DNA of 64,000 bases from Deltaproteobacteria bacterium. GTDB taxonomy: Bacteria; Desulfobacterota; GWC2-55-46. Numbering within the stretch: the first letter of the stretch is position 1; every line of letters starts with the position of its first letter. The DNA lies in the NCBI GenBank assembly GCA_020846435.1, contig JADLDY010000031.1, positions 21,557-85,556 of the forward strand, in the 5' to 3' direction. Position numbers and translations under genes: made by a program. Of the stretch, positions 28,740 through 44,433 are shown in pieces. A model generated the notes under the pieces. The model saw nothing but the letters and a program-made list of their open reading frames with translations, did not search any database and was not told where the DNA came from.

Positions 28740-30026
28740 ATGGAAAAGGCTCAGAGTCAACTGGACAGGTTCATCGTGACCGGGGAAGGCGGGGCGCTTG
28801 TGCCCTTCGCGCTCGCCGGCGCGGCTTCCGTTATTTTACTTGTCGTAGAGATGTATACGGGCGCGGCTCTCGTGAAGGCGCTCCTTCTGGCGGCCCTTGT
28901 CCTCGCGGCCGGCCTTGTCCCGGTCCATGTCTTCAGGCGCCGTTCAATCAGGCTCTCTGAAGTGGACAACGAGGAGATAATAAGGGAGCTTGCCGAAAGG
29001 ACGCGCCATTACACCTCCCGCAGGGAGAGGCTCGAGAGGTTTTTGAGCGCGCAGCATGAGGTGAACAGGCTGATAGACGGACACCTCAAGGACGTCATCG
29101 GCCAGACAGGGGAAGCCGCCTCGCGGATAATAGGCAAATCCCAGGACATTGACTCTTCGATGAACATGATGCGCTCGACCATAAACGCGCTCCAGAGACA
29201 GACCGAGGAGCTCGCCGAGTCGTCGAGCAGGACGATCGAGGACAACGAGAAGAGCATCAACGGCCTCAGGGACTACATAGACAAGAGAAGGGCCGACGTT
29301 GACAACGACTACAAGACAGTCCTCGCCCTTGCCGAGGACGCCAGATCCATGACAAGCCTCGTCGAGCTTTTAAAGGAGATAAGCGACCAGACGAACCTCC
29401 TTGCCCTGAACGCGGCGATAGAGGCCGCGCGGGCCGGAGAGCACGGCAGGGGATTCGCGATAGTGGCCGACGAGGTAAGAAAGCTATCGAAGCATTCAGA
29501 GCAGGCCGCAGGCAAGATAGGACAGGCAATGATACGGATGGCGGACGAGATAGAGGGCAAGTTCGCGTTGAAGCTCAACCAGGACAGGAACAGCCAGGAG
29601 TCGGGCCTCCTTGAGAGCCTCGAAGGCCAGCTCGAAAGCCTGGGGACGAGCTACCGCAGCCTCGACGGCCTCAACAGGCAGGTGCTCGACGAGGTAGGCT
29701 CTTCCAGCGAGAGGGTGGCCTCTGAAGTGCTCGAGCTCCTCGCCGGGGTGCAGTTTCAGGACATAGTCCGCCAGCAGGTCGAGCTCGTCATGAAGGCAGT
29801 GGACGAATGCGACGGGTTTGCGGCTTCTTTGCAGTCGTGCCTGAAGGACGAAAACCTCTGTACCGGGGAGTGCAGGATAACGGAGTTCGACCCCGAGGAC
29901 ATAAGGAAGCACTATGTAATGGAAAAGCAGAGGGAGACGCACGCGTCGGTAGTCGTGCCCTTTCCAGGCAGGCATGCCGCTCAGGAGACGAGGCAGGCCG
30001 CGAACAGCGAGATAACTTTCTTTTAA
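28740..30026 (+). CDS. Methyl-accepting chemotaxis protein, short form (membrane hairpin, no periplasmic domain)
   Basis: Two adjacent TM segments, then MA signalling domain with [39 protein letters not shown]-terminus ends EITFF. Confidence 0.8.
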
Positions 30027-30054: not shown

Positions 30055-30424
30055 GATGGCAAAGACGGTAATGGTAATAGACGATTCGGCGTCGATAAGG
30101 CAGGTCATGAGCCTTACCCTGAGCAAGGCCGGTTATGACGTTACCGAGGCGTGCGACGGCTCGGACGCTCTCGGAAAGCTCACCGGCCAGAAAGTAAACC
30201 TCATCGTCTGCGACGTGAACATGCCGAACATGGACGGCATAACCTTCCTGAAGTCCCTGAAGGACAAGCCTGGCTACAAGTTCACGCCGGTCATAATGCT
30301 CACGACCGAATCCCAGGAGTCCAAGAAGCAGGAAGGAAAGGCCGCTGGCGCGAAGGCGTGGGTCGTCAAGCCCTTCAAGCCCGAGCAGATGCTCGACGCG
30401 GTCTCAAAACTCATTGCGCCTTGA
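30055..30424 (+). CDS. cheY: CheY-like single-domain response regulator
   Basis: VIDDS...D...MPNMDG...K receiver residues; GGAGG RBS before ATG 30055. Confidence 0.85.
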
Positions 30425-30435
30425 ACGGAGATGAC

Positions 30436-30747
30436 ATGGAAATAAGGGTACAGGATAACAATGGTCTCTCGACTGTCGCGATAGAAGGCGAGATGAACAT
30501 CTATCACGCCATGGAATTGAAGTCTGTTGTCATGAAGGCTCTCGACGAGGCCGAGGCAGTAGAGCTCGACCTCTCCGGCGTGAGCGAGTTCGACTCGTCC
30601 GGGCTCCAGATAGTCCTGCTTGCTTGCAGGGAGGCGGAAAAAAACAACAGGAAGCTGAGCGTGAAAGCGTCGAGCGCGCCGGTTGATTCGGTCATTGAAC
30701 TTTTCTGTCTTGGCGGGCTCCTCGGCAGGCGCGAAAGGAAGGCTTAG
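30436..30747 (+). CDS. STAS domain protein (anti-sigma factor antagonist, SpoIIAA-like)
   Basis: LDLSGVSEFDSSGLQIVL matches the SpoIIAA/RsbV phospho-serine region (DLS.V.F.DSSG). Confidence 0.75.
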   Translation: MEIRVQDNNGLSTVAIEGEMNIYHAMELKSVVMKALDEAEAVELDLSGVSEFDSSGLQIVLLACREAEKNNRKLSVKASSAPVDSVIELFCLGGLLGRRERKA

Positions 30748-32913
30748 ATGGACCTTGAACTAGGACAGGCAAGGCAGACTTTCATAACGGAGAGCAGGGA
30801 GCTGCTTCAGGAGATGGAGAGCGCCCTTCTTACGCTCGAGGCGGACCCTGAGGACCAGGCCGCGATAAACTCGCTTTTCCGCTCGGCGCATACCATAAAG
30901 GGCTCTTCCGGCGTCCTCGGCATTGAGGCCGTCGAGAAGTTTACGCACTTCGTCGAGAACCTCCTGTCACAGATGAGGGATGGGGAGATAAAGGCGAGGA
31001 AGGAGAACATCGACCTCCTTCTTGAATGCAGGGACCACATATCGACCCTTACGGCCCTCGCGGCAAGCGGCATAGAGGAGCTTTCACCCGAGGTGGAGGC
31101 GAATGGAGCGGCCCTGACAAGCCGCCTCGGAGAGTTGCTCGGCGCGCAGGAAGCGAAGCCTGAGGCAAAAGGGGCCGCGAAGGAAGAAGAGAGGCTTGAC
31201 GGGCCGTCTTCCGCGGCCGACGCATGGCACATATCCATAAGGTTCGGCCAGGACGTACTGCGCTCCGGCATGGACCCTGTCTCGTTTCTGACCTATCTCG
31301 CGAAGCTCGGCGAGGTCGTAAGCTGCACGACCCTCTTCGATTCCATGCCCCCGGTTGAGGATATGGACCCTGAGAGCTGCTATCTGGGTTTTGAGATAGA
31401 CCTCAAGAGCGCCTCTGACAAGGCCGCCATAGAGGGCGTCTTCGAGTTTGTCAGGGAGGACGCGGCAATCCGCATACTGCCGCCTTTCAGCCGGGTGGCC
31501 TCATACGTCGAGCTCATAAGCGAGCTTCCGGAGGACACTCTTCTTCTCGGAGAGATACTCGTCAAGGGAGGAGCGCTCACAAGCAGGGAGCTCGAAGACG
31601 CGCTCGCGAAACAGCGCGCTACGGCCCCGGGAGAGGAGAAGCCCCGCATAGGCGACCTCCTCATAGAGGGCGGGTCTGTCCACGCCGAGACGGTCGCCGC
31701 GGCGGCGGAGAAACAGAAGAAAAACCAGTCGGCAGGCGCGAAAGAGGCCTCGACCGTGAGGATAGACGCGGCAAAGCTGGACGCGCTCGTCGACCTCGTG
31801 GGAGAGCTCGTGATATCCGGGGCGAACATAGAGCAGCATTCGGCGCGCATCGCTGACGCTGGCCTGAGCGAGTCTGCCTCCGTCATGCTCCGGCTCGTAG
31901 AGGAGATACGCGAGTCGACCATGAAGATAAGGATGGTCCCCATAGGCGAGACCTTTACGAGGTTCAGGAGAGTGGTGAGGGACATAAGCCGCGAGCTCGG
32001 TAAGGACGTCGACCTCGTCATATCTGGCGGGGATACGGAACTCGACAAGACGGTCATAGAAAAAATCGGCGACCCGCTCATGCACCTCGTGAGGAACTCG
32101 GCTGACCATGGCATAGAGGGGCCTGAGGAAAGAAAGGCCGCGGGAAAGAACGCTAAAGGCACCGTGCGCCTAAACGCTTTCCATGACGCTGGCTCCATAA
32201 TAATAGAGGTCGCAGACGACGGCAAGGGGCTCGACAGGGAGAGGATCGCGGCCAAGGCTTTGTCAGCCGGGCTCATCCAGCACGGGGCGCAGCTCACTGA
32301 CCAGGAGGTCTTCAGGCTCATATTCGAGCCGGGCTTCTCGACCGCCGAGGCAATCACCAAGTTCTCCGGCAGGGGAGTGGGCATGGACGTAGTCAAGCGC
32401 AACATCGAGGCGCTGCGCGGGACGATATACATAGAGAGCGCTCAGGGCACGGGTACGACGATAAGGATAAGGCTTCCCCTTACGATGGCGATAATCGACG
32501 GCTTCATGGTCGGGGTCGGAGGTTCTCCGTACATCATCCCGCTCGACATGGTGATGGAGTGCGTCGAGCTCTCCGAGGCAGAAAGGAGCGCGGCCGACAG
32601 GAGGAGCTACATAAACCTGCGCGGCGAGGTCCTCCCGTATGTGCGCCTCAAAAACTTCTTCAACGAGGGCGGCCTTACGGCCGGCCACGAGAACATAGTC
32701 ATAGTCCAGTATGGCGGGCACAAAATAGGCCTCGTGGTCGACGAGCTCTTCGGAGAGGTGCAGACGGTAATAAAGTCCTTGGGCAGGGTTTACAGGGACA
32801 TAAAGGGCATCTCCGGGGCTACCATCCTGGGCAACGGCCAGGTGGCGCTCATCCTCGACGTCCCGAGGCTCATGCAGTCTGTAGAGACAAGCTTCATGGC
32901 CAGGAGTGCCTGA
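30748..32913 (+). CDS. cheA: Chemotaxis histidine kinase CheA
   Basis: Hpt P1 (HTIKGSSG), P2, dimerisation, HATPase_c (G1/G2 boxes) and C-terminal CheW-like P5 domain. ATG overlaps the upstream stop. Confidence 0.9.
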   Translation: MDLELGQARQTFITESRELLQEMESALLTLEADPEDQAAINSLFRSAHTIKGSSGVLGIEAVEKFTHFVENLLSQMRDGEIKARKENIDLLLECRDHISTLTALAASGIEELSPEVEANGAALTSRLGELLGAQEAKPEAKGAAKEEERLDGPSSAADAWHISIRFGQDVLRSGMDPVSFLTYLAKLGEVVSCTTLFDSMPPVEDMDPESCYLGFEIDLKSASDKAAIEGVFEFVREDAAIRILPPFSRVASYVELISELPEDTLLLGEILVKGGALTSRELEDALAKQRATAPGEEKPRIGDLLIEGGSVHAETVAAAAEKQKKNQSAGAKEASTVRIDAAKLDALVDLVGELVISGANIEQHSARIADAGLSESASVMLRLVEEIRESTMKIRMVPIGETFTRFRRVVRDISRELGKDVDLVISGGDTELDKTVIEKIGDPLMHLVRNSADHGIEGPEERKAAGKNAKGTVRLNAFHDAGSIIIEVADDGKGLDRERIAAKALSAGLIQHGAQLTDQEVFRLIFEPGFSTAEAITKFSGRGVGMDVVKRNIEALRGTIYIESAQGTGTTIRIRLPLTMAIIDGFMVGVGGSPYIIPLDMVMECVELSEAERSAADRRSYINLRGEVLPYVRLKNFFNEGGLTAGHENIVIVQYGGHKIGLVVDELFGEVQTVIKSLGRVYRDIKGISGATILGNGQVALILDVPRLMQSVETSFMARSA

Positions 32914-33011: not shown

Positions 33012-34697
33012 ATGGATTTCTTAAGGAATCTCAAAACCCGGTCCAAGCTGTTTTTGAGTTTCACCGTGCTCATCGTTTTCGTGCTCGGGCTCGGAGTGCT
33101 CAGCATCAACAGGATAGGCGAGATGCGCTCCATGATTCAGACGCTCTACGCAGACAGGTTCGTCCCGGCGGTCGACCTTGGCAAGATAAACAACCATCTT
33201 GCCTTCATCAGGATAGGCGCCCTCCAGATAATGAACGAGACTGACAAGGTCAGGAAGCAGGAAATATGGAACAAGGCGGCCGAGTCTGCAGAGGAGACGG
33301 ACAAGCTCATAACCAAGTACGGCGCCACCGAGATGGTTGAAGAAGAGCAGAAGGTCTTCGACGCGCTCAAATCCTCCTGGGCGAGCTACAACGCTTCGCG
33401 CCTTGCGACCTACAAATTGGCGCTTGACGGCGAGAACGTGAAGGCCAAGGAGAACGCGATAACCGACGCAGGCCCCAAGTTCAAGGTCCTTGACGGGAAC
33501 GTGGTAAGGCTCATCGAGATACAGGACGAAGTGGGGCAGGCCCTCAACAAGGAAGCTGACAACGATTACGCCTTCACAAGGAACGTCGTCATAGCCGCAA
33601 CCGTGGTCTCTGTTGGCATAGGCGCCGCGCTCGCGCTCATCCTTACCACACTGATCGCCAGGCCTCTGGTCGAGGTGACGGGAGTCGCCAACAGGCTCGC
33701 CGATGGAGACCTCAGCGTGGACATCGACGCGAAGGGCAAGGACGAGATAGGCGAGCTCACCACCGCGTTCAAAAACATGGTCGGCAAGCTGCGCGAAGTC
33801 GTCTCTGACGTAAGGGCGGTCTCCGACAACGTCGCCTCAGGCGCGCAGGAATTGAGCTCAGGAGCCCAGCAGATCTCCCAGGGCGCGACCGAGCAGGCGG
33901 CCTCTATTGAGGAGACCTCCTCGTCGATGGAGCAGATGACCGCCAACATCAGGCAGAACTCGGACAACGCGCAGCAGACGGAAAAGATTGCGCATAAGTC
34001 CGCGACCGACGCCAAAGAGAGCGGCCAGGCCGTGACCGAGACGGTAGTCGCGATGAAGGAGATAGCTTCGAAGATATCCATAATAGAAGAGATAGCGAGG
34101 CAGACGAACCTCCTCGCCCTGAACGCCGCGATAGAGGCCGCGAGGGCCGGAGAGCACGGCAAGGGCTTCGCGGTTGTCGCTTCCGAAGTAAGAAAGCTCG
34201 CGGAAAGAAGCCAGACGGCTGCCGGAGAGATAAGCCACCTGTCAGCCTCCAGCGTGCAGATAGCCGAGAAGGCCGGAGAGATGCTCGCCAGGCTCGTCCC
34301 GGACATCCAGAAGACCTCAGAGCTCGTGCAGGAGATAACCGCGGCGAGCGCAGAGCAGAACTCAGGCGCCGACCAGATAAACAGGGCGCTCCAGCAGCTC
34401 GACCAGGTCATCCAGCAGAACGCCTCAGGCGCCGAAGAGCTCGCGTCTACCTCGGAAGAGCTCTCCGGGCAGTCTGAACAGCTCCAGAGGTCCATCGCCT
34501 TCTTCAGGGCCACGGGCGCTTCAGCTCCCGCCGCCAATGTAGTGCAAATAAACAGGGCGAAGCCCGCGCACAAGGCAAAACCGTCGCATCAGGCCCATCA
34601 GGCACGCAAGAGCGCGCCGCAGGCCGCGAACGGCGGGGTCGTCCTGAACCTCGGGACAGGCAGGGATGAAGAAGACGGCGAGTTCGTCAAATACTGA
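33012..34697 (+). CDS. Methyl-accepting chemotaxis protein with periplasmic four-helix-bundle sensor, HAMP
   Basis: TM1, about 150-aa helical periplasmic domain, TM2, HAMP, MA domain ([39 protein letters not shown]). Confidence 0.85.
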   Translation: MDFLRNLKTRSKLFLSFTVLIVFVLGLGVLSINRIGEMRSMIQTLYADRFVPAVDLGKINNHLAFIRIGALQIMNETDKVRKQEIWNKAAESAEETDKLITKYGATEMVEEEQKVFDALKSSWASYNASRLATYKLALDGENVKAKENAITDAGPKFKVLDGNVVRLIEIQDEVGQALNKEADNDYAFTRNVVIAATVVSVGIGAALALILTTLIARPLVEVTGVANRLADGDLSVDIDAKGKDEIGELTTAFKNMVGKLREVVSDVRAVSDNVASGAQELSSGAQQISQGATEQAASIEETSSSMEQMTANIRQNSDNAQQTEKIAHKSATDAKESGQAVTETVVAMKEIASKISIIEEIARQTNLLALNAAIEAARAGEHGKGFAVVASEVRKLAERSQTAAGEISHLSASSVQIAEKAGEMLARLVPDIQKTSELVQEITAASAEQNSGADQINRALQQLDQVIQQNASGAEELASTSEELSGQSEQLQRSIAFFRATGASAPAANVVQINRAKPAHKAKPSHQAHQARKSAPQAANGGVVLNLGTGRDEEDGEFVKY

Positions 34698-34712: not shown

Positions 34713-35195
34713 GTGGACAACATAACTGAAACGGCGCAGTACCTTACGTTCAGGCTCGAGGAGGAGGTATTCGCCCTTGACATATCGCAGGTGAGGGAGG
34801 TCCTCGACTTAACGTCCATCACCAAGGTGCCGAGGACCCCGGAGTTCATGCGGGGGGTCATAAACCTTCGCGGCTCTGTCGTGCCGGTAGTCGACATGAG
34901 GCTCAAGTTCTCCATGACGAGGACCGAGCAGACCCTCAACACCTGCATAATAATAGTCGAGATAAGCGTCGAGGGCGAGAGGCTCGTGCTCGGCGCGCTG
35001 GCGGACTCGGTCCAGGAGGTCATCGAGCTCGGCCCCGGTCAGATAGAGCCAGCGCCAAGGATTGGCGCGAGGTTTGACACCGAGTTCATAAAGGGCATGG
35101 GCAAGAGGGACGATGAGTTCATAATCATCCTCGACATAGACAGGATATTCTCGGCCGGCGAGCTCGCCGCGACGGCACTAGCAGAGGCGTGCTGA
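34713..35195 (+). CDS. cheW: Chemotaxis coupling protein CheW
   Basis: CheW-like domain (YLTFRLEEEVFALDISQVREV...); GTG start with GGAGGG RBS. Confidence 0.85.
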   Translation: MDNITETAQYLTFRLEEEVFALDISQVREVLDLTSITKVPRTPEFMRGVINLRGSVVPVVDMRLKFSMTRTEQTLNTCIIIVEISVEGERLVLGALADSVQEVIELGPGQIEPAPRIGARFDTEFIKGMGKRDDEFIIILDIDRIFSAGELAATALAEAC

Positions 35196-35196
35196 C

Positions 35197-36051
35197 ATGG
35201 AAGCTCTAAGCACGCCGGTTAGCCTCAAGAGGCTTTCCGAGGACGAGTTCAAAAAACTCAGCTCCCTTGTCAACGGAGAGCTCGGCATAAAGATGCCTCC
35301 GGCAAAGAGGACATTGCTGGAATCGCGCCTGCAAAAGCGTCTCCGCGCTCTCGGGCTCGCCTCCTACGCCGAGTACTGCGACCTGCTCTTCAACAGGGGC
35401 GGCATGAAGACCGAGCTCGTCCACATGCTCGACCTCGTGACGACCAACAAGACCGATTTCTTCAGGGAGGCGCACCACTTCGAGTACCTCGTCTCGACGG
35501 CTGTTCCCGCCCTTCTTGGAGGCCGGTCGCAGAGGGTGAGCCTCTGGAGCGCGGGCTGCTCCTCAGGAGAAGAGCCGTACACACTGGCCATGGTCCTCAG
35601 CGAGTACGCTCGGCTTAACCAGGGGGCAGGTTTTGACTTCACGATAGCCGCGACCGACATATCTACGAGGGTGCTGGAGGCCGCGTGCAGGGGCGTCTAC
35701 AATGAAGAGAGGGTCGCCCCGGTGCCTATGGAGCTGAGGAGGAGGTACTTCCTCAAGAGCAAGGACGCTTCAAGGTCGCTTGTCCGGGTCACGCCGGAAC
35801 TCAGGAGCAAGATAGCCTTCTCGCGCGTCAACCTCATGGACGAAGAGTACGCCATCGACGCGCCGGTCGACATAATATTCTGCAGGAACGTCATCATCTA
35901 CTTTGACAAGCCCACGCAGGAGCGGCTCTTCAGCAGGTTCTGCGAGTACATGAGCCCGGGCGGTTTCCTCTTCATCGGGCATTCGGAGACGCTCAGCGGC
36001 TTTGACCTGCCGCTCAAAAAAGTGGGCGCGTCAGTCTACATGAGACAGTGA
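35197..36051 (+). CDS. cheR: Chemotaxis protein methyltransferase CheR
   Basis: LWSAGCSSGEEPYTLAM and N-terminal all-alpha CheR domain. Confidence 0.9.
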   Translation: MEALSTPVSLKRLSEDEFKKLSSLVNGELGIKMPPAKRTLLESRLQKRLRALGLASYAEYCDLLFNRGGMKTELVHMLDLVTTNKTDFFREAHHFEYLVSTAVPALLGGRSQRVSLWSAGCSSGEEPYTLAMVLSEYARLNQGAGFDFTIAATDISTRVLEAACRGVYNEERVAPVPMELRRRYFLKSKDASRSLVRVTPELRSKIAFSRVNLMDEEYAIDAPVDIIFCRNVIIYFDKPTQERLFSRFCEYMSPGGFLFIGHSETLSGFDLPLKKVGASVYMRQ

Positions 36052-36064
36052 AAAGGAGAAGAGC

Positions 36065-36961
36065 ATGAAGGCACTCCAGGACCATGAGCTTGTGGACGAG
36101 CTCAGAGAAAGGCTCGCCGCCAAGGACAGGGCGTATCAGGACCTGGCCGCGGTGACGGCCAAGCTCGAGGAGCTCAACCGCAGGCTGGTCGAGTCCGAAA
36201 AGTTGAAGTCAAGCTTCCTCTCGAACATAAGGAACGAGATAAACAACCCCCTGACTTCGGTCATGGCCCTCTCAGAGCTCCTTTCAGGCGGGGAGAGCGC
36301 ACCTGACGAGCAGACGGTGAAGTCTATTGCCGGGCTCATACACAGGGACGCCTTCAGTTTGAACTTTCAGCTGAGGAACGTCTTTGCCGCGGCCGAGCTG
36401 GAGGCTGGGGAGGCCGAGCCCTCGTTCATGAACACGGATGTCGAGTCAGTGCTCAGCGACTCCATAGCGTCGCTTTCAGGGCGCGCCGCCGAAAAAAAGG
36501 TAAGGGTCACATTCGAGATCCCGGCGGAGCTCAAGGCGAGCCCGTTCAGGACTGACGCGGAAAAACTGCACAGGGTCTTTTTGAACCTCCTTGCCAACGC
36601 CATAGAATTCAGCCCTGAGGGAGCAGAGGTGCGCGCTTCAGCAGCGCTCGAGGAAGGGACGCTTCTCCTGAGAGTGAGGGACTGCGGCCCAGGCATAGAT
36701 AAAAAAGATCATGCCGCGGTCTTCGAGCGCTTCCGCCAGCTCGAGAACGGCGCCACTAAACATCACGCGGGCCACGGCCTGGGCCTGAGCATCGTGAAGG
36801 CGTCGGTCGAGCTCCTCGGAGGCTCGATCGCGCTCGAGAGCGCGCCTGGCAGGGGCTCCGTCTTCATCGTCAGATTGCCTGAGGCGCCGGAGTGCCAGTC
36901 AGGGGATTTTCTGAGCGGCGGGGCCGAGTTCTTCGATACTGCTGAAGGCGAGAGGTTCTGA
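36065..36961 (+). CDS. Histidine-kinase-like protein with degenerate H-box (His replaced by Asn) and intact HATPase_c domain
   Basis: HisKA-like helix reads SFLSNIRNEINNPLTSV where canonical kinases have (A/S)HE(I/L)(N/R)(N/T)PL. Codons agg-aac-gag at about 36230 were checked. The N box (LLANAIEFSPEG), G1 (VRDCGPGID) and G2 (GHGLGLSIVK) are intact. Confidence 0.7.
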   Translation: MKALQDHELVDELRERLAAKDRAYQDLAAVTAKLEELNRRLVESEKLKSSFLSNIRNEINNPLTSVMALSELLSGGESAPDEQTVKSIAGLIHRDAFSLNFQLRNVFAAAELEAGEAEPSFMNTDVESVLSDSIASLSGRAAEKKVRVTFEIPAELKASPFRTDAEKLHRVFLNLLANAIEFSPEGAEVRASAALEEGTLLLRVRDCGPGIDKKDHAAVFERFRQLENGATKHHAGHGLGLSIVKASVELLGGSIALESAPGRGSVFIVRLPEAPECQSGDFLSGGAEFFDTAEGERF

Positions 36962-36963
36962 GA

Positions 36964-37440
36964 GTGCGCACAGCGGCGCTGAACAGCGAGGCCAGGTACC
37001 TGTACCCCGGCATGCTCTTTGCCGAGCCAGGCGACTTCGGCGTGACGACCGTGCTCGGCTCATGCGTCTCCGTCTGCCTCTGGGATGCGGCCGCCAGAGT
37101 AGGCGGCATCAACCATTACCTCCTGCCTCTGTGGAACGGGGACGGCCTCAGGACGCCCAAGTACGGCAATATCGCCATCCCGATGCTCGTCGAGAAGCTT
37201 TTGCAGTCAGGCTGCACCAGGGCGGGGCTCAAGGCCAAGATCTTCGGCGGCGGCAGCGTACTTGAGAACACAAGCGGCCTCCTGAACGTCGGCGAGAGGA
37301 ACATAAAATACGCTGAGAGCGCGCTCGATGAGGCGCGAATCCCGATAATAGGAAGAGACGTGGGCGGCAATTCCGGAAGGAAGCTCCTGTTCGTAACCGG
37401 CACGGGAGACGTCTTCGTCAGAAAGCTGAATAAACAGTGA
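36964..37440 (+). CDS. cheD: Chemoreceptor glutamine deamidase CheD
   Basis: [12 protein letters not shown] catalytic Cys region; GTG start. Confidence 0.85.
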
Positions 37441-38498
37441 ACGCCAGAAAAAAGGTCCTCATAGTGGACGACTCGGCCGTTGTGCGCCGTGTCCTGACGA
37501 ACATCATCTCATCTGACGACGGGCTCGAGGTCATGGCGACCGCCTCTGACCCTTTCGTCGCGGCCGAGAAGATAGCTGCCGAGGTGCCGGATGTCATGAC
37601 GCTCGACATTGAGATGCCGAGGATGGACGGGCTTACCTTCCTCCAGAAGATAATGGAGCAGCACCCGATACCCGTCGTCATAATATCGAGCCTCGCTGGC
37701 AGCGGCACAGAGACGGCGATGAAGGCACTCGAGAGCGGGGCTGTCGAGATAATAGAGAAGCCGCAGTTAGGGACAAAGGAGTATCTGGAAGAGGCGTCGG
37801 TCTTCATCTGCGACGCTGTAAAGGCGGCTTCCCAGGTAAAGCCAAATCATGTGCGCCCCCCTTTGCCGGTGACTGCCAAGCTCACCGCCGACGCCGTTCT
37901 CCAGAAGAGCGGGGCTAAGGCCATGCTCAAGACGACCGAGAAGGTCATAGTCGTCGGGGCCTCTACCGGAGGGACAGAGGCGATAGCTGAGTTCCTCACA
38001 AACATGCCGCCTGATTCTCCCGGGATCGTCATCGTCCAGCACATGCCTGAGAGGTTTACAGCCGCCTTCGCGAAGAGGCTTGATTCGATATGCGCGATAT
38101 CGGTCAAGGAGGCCGAGGATAACGACACTGTCATAAGGGGGAGGGCGCTCATCGCCCCTGGCAACAGGCACATGCTCCTTAAAAGAAGCGGGGCGAGATA
38201 TTACGTCGAGATAAAAGACGGCCCGCTTGTCGCGCGCCACAGGCCTTCGGTAGACGTGCTCTTCCGTTCGGCGGCTTCCTACGCAGGCAAGAACGCCGTA
38301 GGAGTCATTTTGACCGGCATGGGGGACGACGGAGCGCTTGGCATGAAGGAGATGAAGGACGCCGGGGCAATAAACATCGCGCAGGACGAACATTCGTGCG
38401 TTGTGTACGGCATGCCTAAAGAGGCTATAAAGGCGGGCGGGGTGGATTTTGTGCTGCCGCTGAAGGCTATCTCCTCAAAAGTCCTCGCCGAGTGTTAG
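37437..38498 (+). CDS. cheB: Chemotaxis response regulator protein-glutamate methylesterase CheB
   Basis: N-terminal REC ([11 protein letters not shown]...D) plus CheB methylesterase ([18 protein letters not shown]). Confidence 0.9.
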
Positions 38499-42282: not shown

Positions 42283-44433
42283 TCAGGCGGCTTTTTTGCT
42301 CTTTTTGAGGTGAAGAACCTTTGTCTGGACAAGGCGGGCTTCTTCTGTCTGCCTGCCCGTAATCCTGAAGACCTCGACGGTCGCCTTGAGGTTTGTGGCG
42401 AGTTCGGCCATCTCCTGGCTCGCCTTCGCTATCTGCTGGGCGCTGGCTGATGTCTCGTTTATAACGTCAGCGACGGCAGATATGTCGCCGCTTATCTGCT
42501 CGGTGGCGGCGGACTGCTGTTCTGTCGCGGTAGTCACCTGGTGGACCATCGAGGTGACGACGTCGACCTTGTTGACTATCTCGCTCAAAGCATCCCCTGC
42601 TTCCTGTGCGAGCCTGACGCCCTTTTCAACTGCGTATACCTCTTCCTGCATCGAGGAGATGGCCTTGCCGGTCTCGTCCTGCATGGCCTTTATCATCTCG
42701 CCGATCTCCTTTGTCGCCATCATGGTCTTTTCTGCGAGTTTTCTTACCTCGTCGGCTACCACGGCGAATCCTCTGCCCTGCTCTCCGGCCCTTGCCGCCT
42801 CTATCGCCGCGTTCAAGGCAAGCAGGTTGGTCTGGTCGGCGATGTCGTCTATGACGTTCACTATGTTGCCAATCTGGTTTGAGCGTTCGCCGAGGGCCGA
42901 GATTATCGCGCTCGATTCCTTCGCGGTTCCGGCTATCCCGTGCATCGAGGTTATGGTCTCGGAGACTATGCGCCCGCCCTTTACGGCAACAGAGCTTGCT
43001 TCCCTGGCGGCGTCGGCCGCGCTCGAGACGTTCCTGGCGACCTCGATGATCGTCGCGCTCATCTCCTGGGTCGCGGTCGAGACCTGTGCGGCCCTCGAGC
43101 TCTGCGACTGCGAGCCTCCAGCTATCTGCACAGCGGAGGCCGAGAGCTCCTCAGAGGACGACGCGAGGTGCTCGATCGACGAGTGAAGGTCTTTCACTAT
43201 GCCGTGGAATTTGCCTATCATGCTGTTGAAGGACGATGCCATCTGGCCGTTCTCGTCCTTGGAGGCCACATCGATCGAGAGTGTGAGGTCGTTGGTTTTT
43301 TCTATGTTGGACATGGCCTCGTTCATGCGCGTGAGAGGCTGTACGACCTTGCTGCTTACCACGATCATGCTGAATATGCCGAGGCCGATGATCGCGAGCG
43401 TGAAGACGAAGGCGATGACCATGTTGCGTTTGGAAGCCGCGAGGTCAGCCATCACGGGCGCGTCGACCATGGCTCCGACCGCCGCCGAGACCGCAAGGAT
43501 CGAGTCTATGGCCTCTGAGCTCTTCTCTATCCACTCCTTGCCTGTGATCGGGTACTGTCCTGTCGAGGCGGCTTCCATCACGGATTTGCGCACCGCTTCA
43601 AAGCTGCCCAGGTATATCGACTCCATCTTCGAGAGGGCTTCGAGCACCTCCCTGTTGATGCCGTTCATGTTCTTGACGCGAAGGACGGGCTTTAAGTTTA
43701 TATCGACTACCGCCTTGAATGTGTTGAGCTTCTGCATGCCTTCCGCGTCGACTGGCGTGCCGGACGAGACGAACTTGGCGAGCGCGGCCCGCTCCCTTCC
43801 GGCGTACTCGCTCACGAGCCACAGGGCCTGCTTGAGCTCGAGGTTCATGCGCAGCGCCTGCTGGTTCGTATCCTTGCTGGCGCTGGAGGAGAAGGCCGCG
43901 AGCCTTGTTTCGGAAGCGGCGTCGATAAGCGTTGTCGTGAACTTTATCCATTCCTGCGGAGAGTAGCTCTTCTGGGCTTTTTCAACTTCGTTGTCGACGG
44001 TGCGCCTGAGCGTCGTGAGCTCTCCCTGGAGCCGTTCAAGCTCCCTTACGGAGGAGTTGAAAAGCTTGTTCTCATTGTCAGTCTCCTGAAATTCTTTTGA
44101 GAGCTCGAAGGACTTCTTGAGGGATTCGTCAAGTCTGGAGCGTACGTCCTGGATCTTCTGGAGCAGCGTCCCTTCGGCAGGCTTGTCTGAGGAAAGGGCG
44201 GTCGCTGTAAATCCTCTTTCCTTGGCCGCGAACCCGGCGGCGGCTAACAGGTTGTCTGCCAACTCGTTGGCTATGTCGACCCTGCCGGTCTCCTTGTAGC
44301 TGCGCCATGTGTCGAGCGCGATCGATGCTGACAGCCCAGCCAGAACCAGCACGAGCGTGCCGATAACCGCCAGCATGAAATTCCTGATGCTGATTCGCTG
44401 CAAAAAACGCATAGAACCTCCTGAGTAGTGCAT
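42283..44433 (-). CDS. Methyl-accepting chemotaxis protein with large (about 300 aa) periplasmic sensor domain
   Basis: TM1, periplasmic domain, TM2, HAMP, MA domain ([39 protein letters not shown]). Confidence 0.85.

Follow-up and report, generated by a model that had tools for sequence, protein, structure and literature searches.

A HisKA-type protein with asparagine at the phospho-acceptor position, encoded directly upstream of cheD in several bacterial phyla

CheD, the receptor glutamine deamidase, is among the least understood chemotaxis proteins. To our knowledge, CheC is its only established partner, with CheX reported as a further one; Moon and colleagues are said to have described a pairing of CheD with CheX in Borrelia in 2016. 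The gene order is cheC-cheD in both Bacillus subtilis and Thermotoga maritima. CheD binds CheC, the binding is strengthened by phosphorylated CheY (CheY~P), and CheC is believed to govern the access of CheD to receptors (PMC3513319). A separate line of work concerns the phosphatase activity of HisKA-type kinases, which needs a Thr or Asn four residues after the phospho-acceptor His (position +4) and which the His itself enhances without being strictly required (PMC3510030). The H139N form of NtrB functions only as a phosphatase (10.1101/122606). The present analysis deals with HKN, the name used here for a His-less HisKA/HATPase protein encoded at 36065..36961 of a 64,000-nucleotide stretch of DNA from a Deltaproteobacteria bacterium (contig JADLDY010000031.1, positions 21,557 to 85,556), the whole of which is called the window; positions below, except those given with a locus name, are those of the window, on the + strand unless stated otherwise. 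HKN belongs to a widespread and sharply defined family with an unexpected, invariant genomic partner, cheD, and we infer a mechanism for it below. HKN is best regarded as a probable accessory protein of chemotaxis, so far undescribed, rather than as a sensor kinase that has broken down.

The degenerate H-box of HKN, F51-L-S-N-I-R-N-E-I-N-N-P-L63, is encoded at 36215..36253. Within it, the codons agg-aac-gag-ata-aac-aac-ccc-ctg at 36230-36253 give R56-N57-E58-I59-N60-N61-P62-L63, in agreement with a sequence-only reading of the window that had translated them as RNEINNPL and proposed a His-to-Asn change in the H-box. The AAC codon at 36233..36235 places Asn57 at the phospho-acceptor position, and the AAC codon at 36245..36247 places Asn61 at the +4 Thr/Asn position, which is invariant in the unfused family. 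Comparison with solved structures by phmmer supports the proposed change: in these alignments N57 falls exactly on H260, the acceptor of HK853, on the corresponding His of GacS (7z8n), and on the Tyr of the Caulobacter pseudokinase DivL, and HKN therefore lacks the phospho-acceptor His of sensor kinases. A substitute acceptor among the other His residues of the dimerization and histidine phosphotransfer (DHp) domain was also sought and rejected: conservation of H93 reaches no more than 53%, and H234 and H237 belong to the ATP lid/G2 region.

A protein search over 5.8 billion proteins returns many relatives of about 300 amino acids with 46-99% identity to HKN. Asn57 is present in 121 of 121 sequences (the best 120 homologues and the query), where it lies within an invariant F-L-S-N-I-[RK]-N-E-I-N-N-P-L block. 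When 1.84 billion cluster representatives are scanned exhaustively with HMMER, which sets the family against its nearest kinases, the matches split cleanly: short proteins (<450 amino acids) all carry Asn save one with Ser, whereas long multidomain kinases (30-35% identity) all carry His. Pooled N-type unfused sequences number 189, with Asn in 188 and Ser in one, and share the signature [RK]-N-E-I-N-N-P; the nearest His-type kinases have His in 129 of 129 H-boxes and the signature S-H-E-L-R-T-P. Loss of the His is thus coupled to further changes, from Ser to Arg/Lys at -1, from Arg to Asn at +3, and from Thr to Asn at +4. E58 (+1) and N61 (+4) are invariant in the 189 unfused members, which accordingly all possess the acidic +1 residue and the +4 Thr/Asn of the E/D-x-x-T/N phosphatase mechanism. 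The form (A/S)HEINNPL, which the sequence-only reading had treated as canonical, needs qualification: in the nearest true kinases the box is S-H-E-L-R-T-P-L, although HEINNPL exists as well, two rare family members that retain His being examples.

With each species represented by a single genome, a further scan identifies 243 relatives, the best 80 of which were used for work on gene loci. These best 80 come from uncultured Deltaproteobacteria/Thermodesulfobacteriota; from Desulfuromonadales, Geobacter, and Trichlorobacter; from Nitrospirota, including Ca. Magnetominusculus and Thermodesulfovibrio; from Bacteroidota (Cyclobacteriaceae); and from KSB1, Victivallales, and a Rokubacteria bin. In 79 loci enough of the gene is present for the H-box to be read, and Asn occupies the His position in all 79. 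Among unfused relatives, Asn thus extends across five or more phyla and to identities as low as about 40%. The sequence-only reading had suggested examining orthologues, and would have yielded to a sequencing error or strain variation restoring His, or to His in all orthologues; because the orthologues carry Asn, Asn57 is instead a fixed trait of the family. Sequencing error, a strain variant, and a pseudogene are ruled out by the same homologue survey. The pattern of sequence conservation indicates strong purifying selection on the DHp hairpin with its +1 Glu and +4 Asn, and on the entire ATP pocket. Without the canonical His, ATP-dependent autophosphorylation is not expected, and HKN is almost certainly not a His autokinase.

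The family is tied to cheD. Annotation of the 80 loci by phmmer, with the Che proteins of the window as queries, places a co-directional cheD open reading frame (ORF) directly 3' of HKN in 76 loci, the median distance between the two being 2 nt. In the three loci that seem to depart from this, the contig breaks off within cheD, and a partial cheD was recovered by tblastn in each. In total, cheD lies directly downstream of HKN in 79 of 79 genome loci, also where no other che gene is nearby. The upstream neighbor, by comparison, varies, being cheR in 23 loci, cheB in 22, and an unrelated gene in 30. By gene order, then, HKN shows the genomic pairing with CheD that is a mark of the CheC family, in these 79 loci and in four of four places with receiver fusions described below. 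The CheD proteins linked to HKN retain their catalytic Cys and His. Every genome examined shows translational coupling of HKN to cheD, and the linkage makes it very probable that HKN is a functional partner of CheD.

The surroundings of the pair differ among lineages. In Ca. Magnetominusculus and related Nitrospirota, HKN-cheD sits between dnaA-dnaN and gyrB-gyrA in the replication-origin block, with no other che gene within 8 kb of the pair (loci L020 and L027, at about 5.5-14.3 kb; also L025, L028, L034, L046, L047, and L058). In Geobacter and Trichlorobacter (L085, 1732-5298; L029 and L031, at about 8.0-11.6 kb), the pair is followed by a conserved 112-amino-acid ORF of unassigned family, an HDOD/HD protein, and a GGDEF or response-regulator gene, an arrangement that hints at a link to cyclic di-GMP (c-di-GMP) signaling. 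Many HKN-cheD pairs have no receiver gene nearby; the window operon offers the receivers of both CheY and CheB. In two loci, a second cheD paralogue immediately follows the first (L048, 5625-6134; L071, 9381-9878), and in these second copies the catalytic Cys is replaced (ASSV and GSAV, as against GSCV). From their sequences, they may be non-catalytic CheD proteins.

A further subfamily, found mostly in Acidobacteria (Holophaga), consists of proteins of 410-431 amino acids in which a receiver domain lies ahead of the HKN core and tail. The receiver Asp is invariant in 55 of 55 fusions, as is the -1 Arg. The His position is relaxed in these proteins, with Asn in 45, Ser in 5, His in 2, and Asp, Gly, and Arg in one each, and the +4 position holds Asn in 27, Asp in 25, Ser in 2, and Glu in 1. 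The fusion points to a phosphorylatable receiver as the natural interlocutor of the HKN DHp domain. Gene tables exist for four places, and in each of them cheD comes directly after the fusion gene; one of the four has a His-retaining member. In cultured Holophaga foetida (GCA_000242615.3, KI912268.1; locus L083, 10001-11714), the fusion and cheD lie directly after rpoB-rpoC, and no che genes other than cheD occur within 10 kb of the fusion. Two fusion members, P0312 and P0316, keep the His in the form R-H-E-I-N-N-P. Judged from this motif, they could be true kinases, and they may show the ancestral state of the family. P0312 (locus L087, 8001-9787) is followed by cheD, and the same contig has a second cheD, in the order cheR-cheD-cheB, without HKN.

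The HKN gene begins with ATG and encodes 298 amino acids, 100% identical to NCBI MCC6502768.1. A ribosome-binding site, GGAG, can be read directly at 36055..36058, 6 nt before the ATG; the cheR stop codon occupies 36049-36051, and HKN starts 13 nt later. An N-terminal coiled-coil helix (residues 1-47; 36065..36205) runs into DHp helix 1. It contains family-specific polar residues, D6, R16, N38, S44, and E45, which are invariant or near-invariant and make the helix a candidate partner-binding surface. The DHp/HisKA domain (residues 48-114; 36206..36406) scores 29.0 bits in Pfam against a gathering cut-off of 26.9, a narrow excess that is consistent with a damaged H-box. The HATPase_c catalytic/ATP-binding domain is delimited by the structural model (residues 122-272; 36428..36880), and the Pfam match covers residues 164-274 with an E-value of 6e-28. 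All four of its motifs are present: the N box (36584-36607), G1 (36680-36694), the F box (36722-36733), and G2 (36770-36784). Their ATP-site residues are invariant in 113 family members, namely N174 and N178, D206-x-G-x-G210, F220-x-R-F223, and G236-x-G-L-G240; G264 is likewise invariant in the family alignment, and 36 positions are invariant in all. The sequence-only reading was thus correct in describing the N, G1, and G2 boxes as conserved and the ATPase domain as intact.

An AlphaFold2 model built from 113 sequences (mean predicted local distance difference test score, pLDDT, 79; predicted template modeling score, pTM, 0.70) shows a single unbroken helix over residues 6-74, DHp helix 2 over residues 82-113, an alpha/beta ATPase domain over residues 122-272 with a low-confidence ATP lid, and a disordered tail over residues 280-298. 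Pfam and the model agree on the DHp helical hairpin typical of HisKA kinases. Because the coiled coil leads straight into DHp, HKN has no sensor domain, and the earlier description of a protein with only a coiled coil ahead of its kinase core stands: Pfam finds HisKA and HATPase_c, no further domain above its cut-offs, and neither PAS nor HAMP. At E<=0.1, the Pfam matches comprise HisKA, three HATPase-type families, and a sub-threshold chance match to DUF5858, with no CheC or CheX family among them. No HKN-specific model exists in NCBIfam, in which the matches are generic kinase families far below their cut-offs. HKN and most of its relatives bear the public name 'HAMP domain-containing (sensor) histidine kinase'; a single relative appears as 'TmoS'. 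As no HAMP domain is detectable, the naming is systematically wrong across the family.

The disordered tail carries a conserved motif, GAEFFDTAEGERF, at residues 286-298 (36920..36958). After a variable linker, its consensus reads [DE]-G-N-x-F-[ILF]-F-[DE], followed by a few acidic residues and a C-terminal E-x-F; conservation reaches 90% or more at G286, F289, E296, and F298, and the motif persists in the fusions. By analogy, the tail looks like a tethering peptide. In WalK, an acidic aromatic disordered tail is documented to bind the cognate regulator (PMC9087282). The tail is not taken as a pentapeptide that tethers CheR or CheB, comparable to the EFVKY end of a receptor in the same operon, because its aromatic spacing differs: such pentapeptides follow the rule x-aromatic-x-x-aromatic, whereas the tail has F-x-F or F-F and ends in E-x-F.

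In the window, HKN is gene 8 of 10 co-directional, tightly packed genes in the order MCP, cheY, STAS, cheA, MCP, cheW, cheR, HKN, cheD, cheB, where MCP denotes a methyl-accepting chemotaxis protein. The first gene (28740..30026) encodes an MCP without a periplasmic domain, with an N-terminus that is hydrophobic by eye and the C-terminal end EITFF. It is followed by cheY (30056..30424), a single receiver domain of 122 amino acids and a candidate target or input of HKN; by a 103-amino-acid, anti-sigma-antagonist-like STAS-domain protein with a DSSG motif (30436..30747); and by cheA (30748..32913), with Hpt, dimerization, HATPase_c, and CheW domains. The second MCP (33012..34697) has a 4HB-HAMP-signaling architecture, the C-terminal pentapeptide EFVKY, and seven methylation/deamidation consensus sites, three of them with Gln. 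Then come cheW (34713..35195) and cheR (35197..36051). Downstream of HKN, cheD (36964..37440) has a GTG start 2 nt past the HKN stop and retains its catalytic Cys (LGSC) and His (NH), and cheB (37437..38498), whose start overlaps the cheD stop by 4 nt, encodes a receiver and a methylesterase domain and is a second candidate target of HKN. With its catalytic residues kept and Gln-containing consensus sites on offer in the second MCP, CheD is expected to have substrates in this operon.

Housekeeping genes flank the operon: ligA upstream and, on the other side, genes for a flavin reductase and an RNase H-like protein, then smpB. CheC, CheX, and CheZ were not found in the operon or in the scanned flanks (about 4.6 kb upstream and 10 kb downstream). 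Nor are the three among the 25 commonest Pfam families, the only ones covered, of the 139 nearest unassigned ORFs, within about 1.7 kb of HKN. Some features of the receptor and STAS genes can be recorded separately. The MCPs of HKN-bearing clusters share a pentapeptide-like end, [DE]-F-[VE]-[KRQ]-[YF], as in EFVKY, and the first MCP of the operon has a different conserved end, [DN]-[IV]-T-F-F, as in EITFF, and no methylation consensus site. A further MCP gene, encoding 715 amino acids with HAMP and signaling domains, lies 4 kb downstream of the operon on the - strand (42283-44433), with the housekeeping genes smpB, rseC-like, and rsmB around it. The placement of the STAS gene between cheY and cheA recalls the gene order of Vibrio cholerae cluster I. 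No gene for an RsbW-type kinase or a PP2C phosphatase stands beside it in the window operon.

The reading tentatively preferred here, to which we give rather less than an even chance, is that HKN is a kinase-dead HisKA dimer that responds to a phosphorylated receiver, probably as a phosphatase, and plays the part of CheC opposite CheD. A phosphorylated receiver, whether from the operon CheY, from CheB, or fused to HKN, would dock on the DHp helices as a regulator docks on its kinase. HKN would then hydrolyze the acyl-phosphate through its E-x-x-N motif, with bound nucleotide as a cofactor, as in NtrB H139N. Receiver binding would alter the hold of HKN on CheD, and the level of CheY~P would thereby feed back to receptor deamidation and CheA activation, much as CheC acts opposite CheD in Bacillus and Thermotoga. 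The aromatic-acidic C-terminal tail may tether one of the partners. Phosphatase activity toward a phosphorylated receiver, taken alone and argued from the same analogies, is possible and falls a little short of an even chance. The HKN-cheD order matches cheC-cheD. Geobacter genomes contain three cheD genes against one cheC, and their 'Type 2' clusters hold cheD plus unexplained non-che genes (PMC2577667). The pseudokinase/phosphatase entry in the list of functions offered by the sequence-only reading is accordingly the one now favored. That list was unranked and had missed the genomic context; the che operon, the coupling to cheD, the coupled changes at -1, +3, and +4, the tail motif, and the receiver fusions had all escaped it.

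Several observations weigh against this proposal. In CrdS, the +1 Glu is needed for kinase activity and not for phosphatase activity (PMC3510030), and this residue is invariant in HKN. Every ATP-site residue is invariant too, which the use of ATP explains more simply than a cofactor role. Neither Asn57 nor Asn61 is universally required, because the fusions vary at the His position and 25 of the 55 have Asp at +4. The link to cheD is not tied to loss of the His either, because a His-bearing fusion still precedes cheD. HKN carries no MCP-like [ASTG]-x-x-[EQ]-[EQ]-x-x-[ASTG] site when its sequence is checked. Trichlorobacter lovleyi, which has an HKN-cheD pair, also has cheC genes according to Table 2 of one source (PMC8396549), and HKN is therefore not a simple genome-wide replacement for CheC. 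The structural model speaks for the proposal, though with little weight: it superposes best on DivL and on the HK853-RR468 complex (root-mean-square deviation 2.7 Å, versus 6.0 Å for free HK853), and the complex-like state of the monomer may be a prediction artifact. A role for HKN as a CheD substrate mimic, like that of CheC, was considered separately and set aside, as a Glx-Glx consensus site is absent and the N-terminal half is not similar to MCPs.

A bolder form of the proposal, which we regard as doubtful, is that HKN and CheD constitute an unrecognized, self-contained two-protein module in at least five to six phyla, in which an ATP-binding protein derived from a histidine kinase replaces CheC. 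The strictly conserved nucleotide pocket would have one of two uses: to tie the availability of CheD and the deamidation of receptors to the ATP/ADP state of the cell, or to phosphorylate CheD or the receptor on a non-His residue. Such a module may also act outside classical chemotaxis, because in several lineages the pair stands alone by dnaN-gyrB, rpoBC, or HDOD/GGDEF genes.

It is unlikely, though far from implausible, that HKN is instead a non-catalytic pseudokinase of the DivL type, which would bind a phosphorylated receiver on its DHp domain and relay that state to CheD or the receptor array by 'reverse signaling', with no hydrolysis and no use of ATP. DivL, with Tyr in its H-box, is both the best structural match and the second-best PDB sequence match of HKN, and DivL itself works by reverse signaling (10.1101/812529). 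The tolerance of Ser, Asp, Gly, and Arg at the His position, and the frequent Asp at +4, in the fusions also fits binding better than catalysis. In B. subtilis, CheC is regarded mainly as a regulator of CheD-receptor binding that depends on CheY~P (PMC3513319). However, near-fixation of Asn57, Glu58, and Asn61 in the unfused members, together with an invariant ATP site, amounts to more constraint than a docking surface needs. A further rival is an ATP-dependent kinase that acts on a non-His acceptor, as in RsbW/SpoIIAB or in mitochondrial PDK/BCKDK, with the STAS protein, CheD, or the receptor as substrate; a Ser/Thr kinase was on the list of the sequence-only reading. In its favor, the +1 Glu and all four ATP-site boxes (N, G1, F, and G2) are completely conserved. 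The STAS protein of the operon does have a Ser/Thr at the phosphorylatable position of D-[ST]-x-G, which is kept in closely related clusters, and HKN has a weak similarity to HATPase_c_2. That similarity, at 18.8 bits, lies under the 27.4 cut-off, however, and no conserved Ser/Thr acceptor was identified in CheD. RsbW-type kinases lack a DHp hairpin, which also counts against this explanation. Because cheD is universal and a STAS gene is present at just 17 of the 80 loci, a STAS Ser kinase is retained only as a minor rival, and a non-His kinase of any kind seems quite improbable.

An intact catalytic domain without an acceptor of its own, in a family with rare His-bearing members, could also act in trans on the His of another protein, either the Hpt domain of CheA or, after heterodimerization, the DHp domain of another kinase. 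The model for such trans-phosphorylation is CheA4, which acts for CheA3 in Rhodobacter. In many genomes, however, the HKN-cheD pair stands alone, far from cheA or kinase genes, and it has no specific link to an Hpt protein, so that this explanation is highly improbable. An artifact or decay, that is, a sequencing error, a strain mutation, or a kinase decaying into a pseudogene, has nothing in its favor beyond the single substitution. With Asn spread over at least five phyla, an intact frame, the invariant positions described above, and a conserved operon structure, its probability is close to nil.

A full-text literature search that included motif strings found no description of the HKN family, although an earlier description may exist. 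If the preferred reading of HKN as a CheC-like, receiver-responsive protein is true, it would add a third, unrelated CheD partner, derived from a histidine kinase scaffold, and would imply that a circuit of CheD plus a CheY~P reader was invented more than once. It would also supply the missing CheY~P phosphatase or adaptation element for many systems of Geobacter, Desulfuromonadales, Nitrospirota, and Bacteroidota that have none in the cluster, and would make HKN the natural, widespread, and ancient counterpart of the phosphatase-only NtrB H139N mutant. HKN would then allow a direct test of why a DHp domain and an ATP pocket persist once the His is gone. The question is experimentally accessible, since the family occurs in cultured Trichlorobacter thiogenes (WP_078791041.1), T. 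lovleyi, and Holophaga foetida. For databases, the family implies that hundreds of entries named 'HAMP domain-containing sensor histidine kinase' are misannotated.

Among known systems, HKN shares its fold and type of H-box with NtrB (NRII) H139N and with the phosphatase mode of EnvZ, CrdS, and HK853, and the +4 Asn is invariant in its unfused members. The H-box of NtrB is H-E-I-K-N-P-L and that of HKN is N-E-I-N-N-P-L, which makes HKN in effect a natural H-to-N version. Unlike the H139N mutant, HKN represents a natural and ancient family, and it has no sensor or PII-type input. It further differs from NtrB in its Arg/Lys at -1, its conserved C-terminal tail, and its coupling to CheD rather than to a transcription-factor regulator. 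DivL of Caulobacter resembles HKN as a HisKA/HATPase protein that keeps its fold with the acceptor His replaced, by Tyr in DivL and by Asn in HKN, and it is the best structural match of the HKN model (Foldseek E-value 3e-20, 31-32% identity). DivL acts by binding a phosphorylated single-domain regulator, has a membrane anchor and PAS domains, and serves cell-cycle control with no link to CheD or chemoreceptors. HKN is not a DivL orthologue, because it lacks PAS domains and its identity to DivL is in the same range as that to ordinary kinases.

Like RsbW/SpoIIAB, HKN has a GHKL ATPase domain without a phospho-His, and a STAS gene lies in the same window operon. It departs from the RsbW type in having a full DHp hairpin and HATPase_c instead of HATPase_c_2, and in lacking a conserved STAS substrate alongside. 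The likeness to CheC/CheX is one of circuit: the HKN gene lies immediately upstream of cheD, here in a che operon without a known CheY~P phosphatase. A second likeness is the E-x-x-N pair, which HKN carries on a helix just as the active site of CheC/CheX does (PMC3510030). It has no relation to CheC or CheX in sequence or fold, its model being a kinase fold rather than a CheC-like one; it is a dimer of DHp and GHKL ATPase domains, predicted from sequence to bind nucleotide, without a substrate-mimic motif, and some genomes hold both cheC and an HKN-cheD pair. By analogy, then, HKN would work most like NtrB H139N in its chemistry and most like CheC in its circuit.

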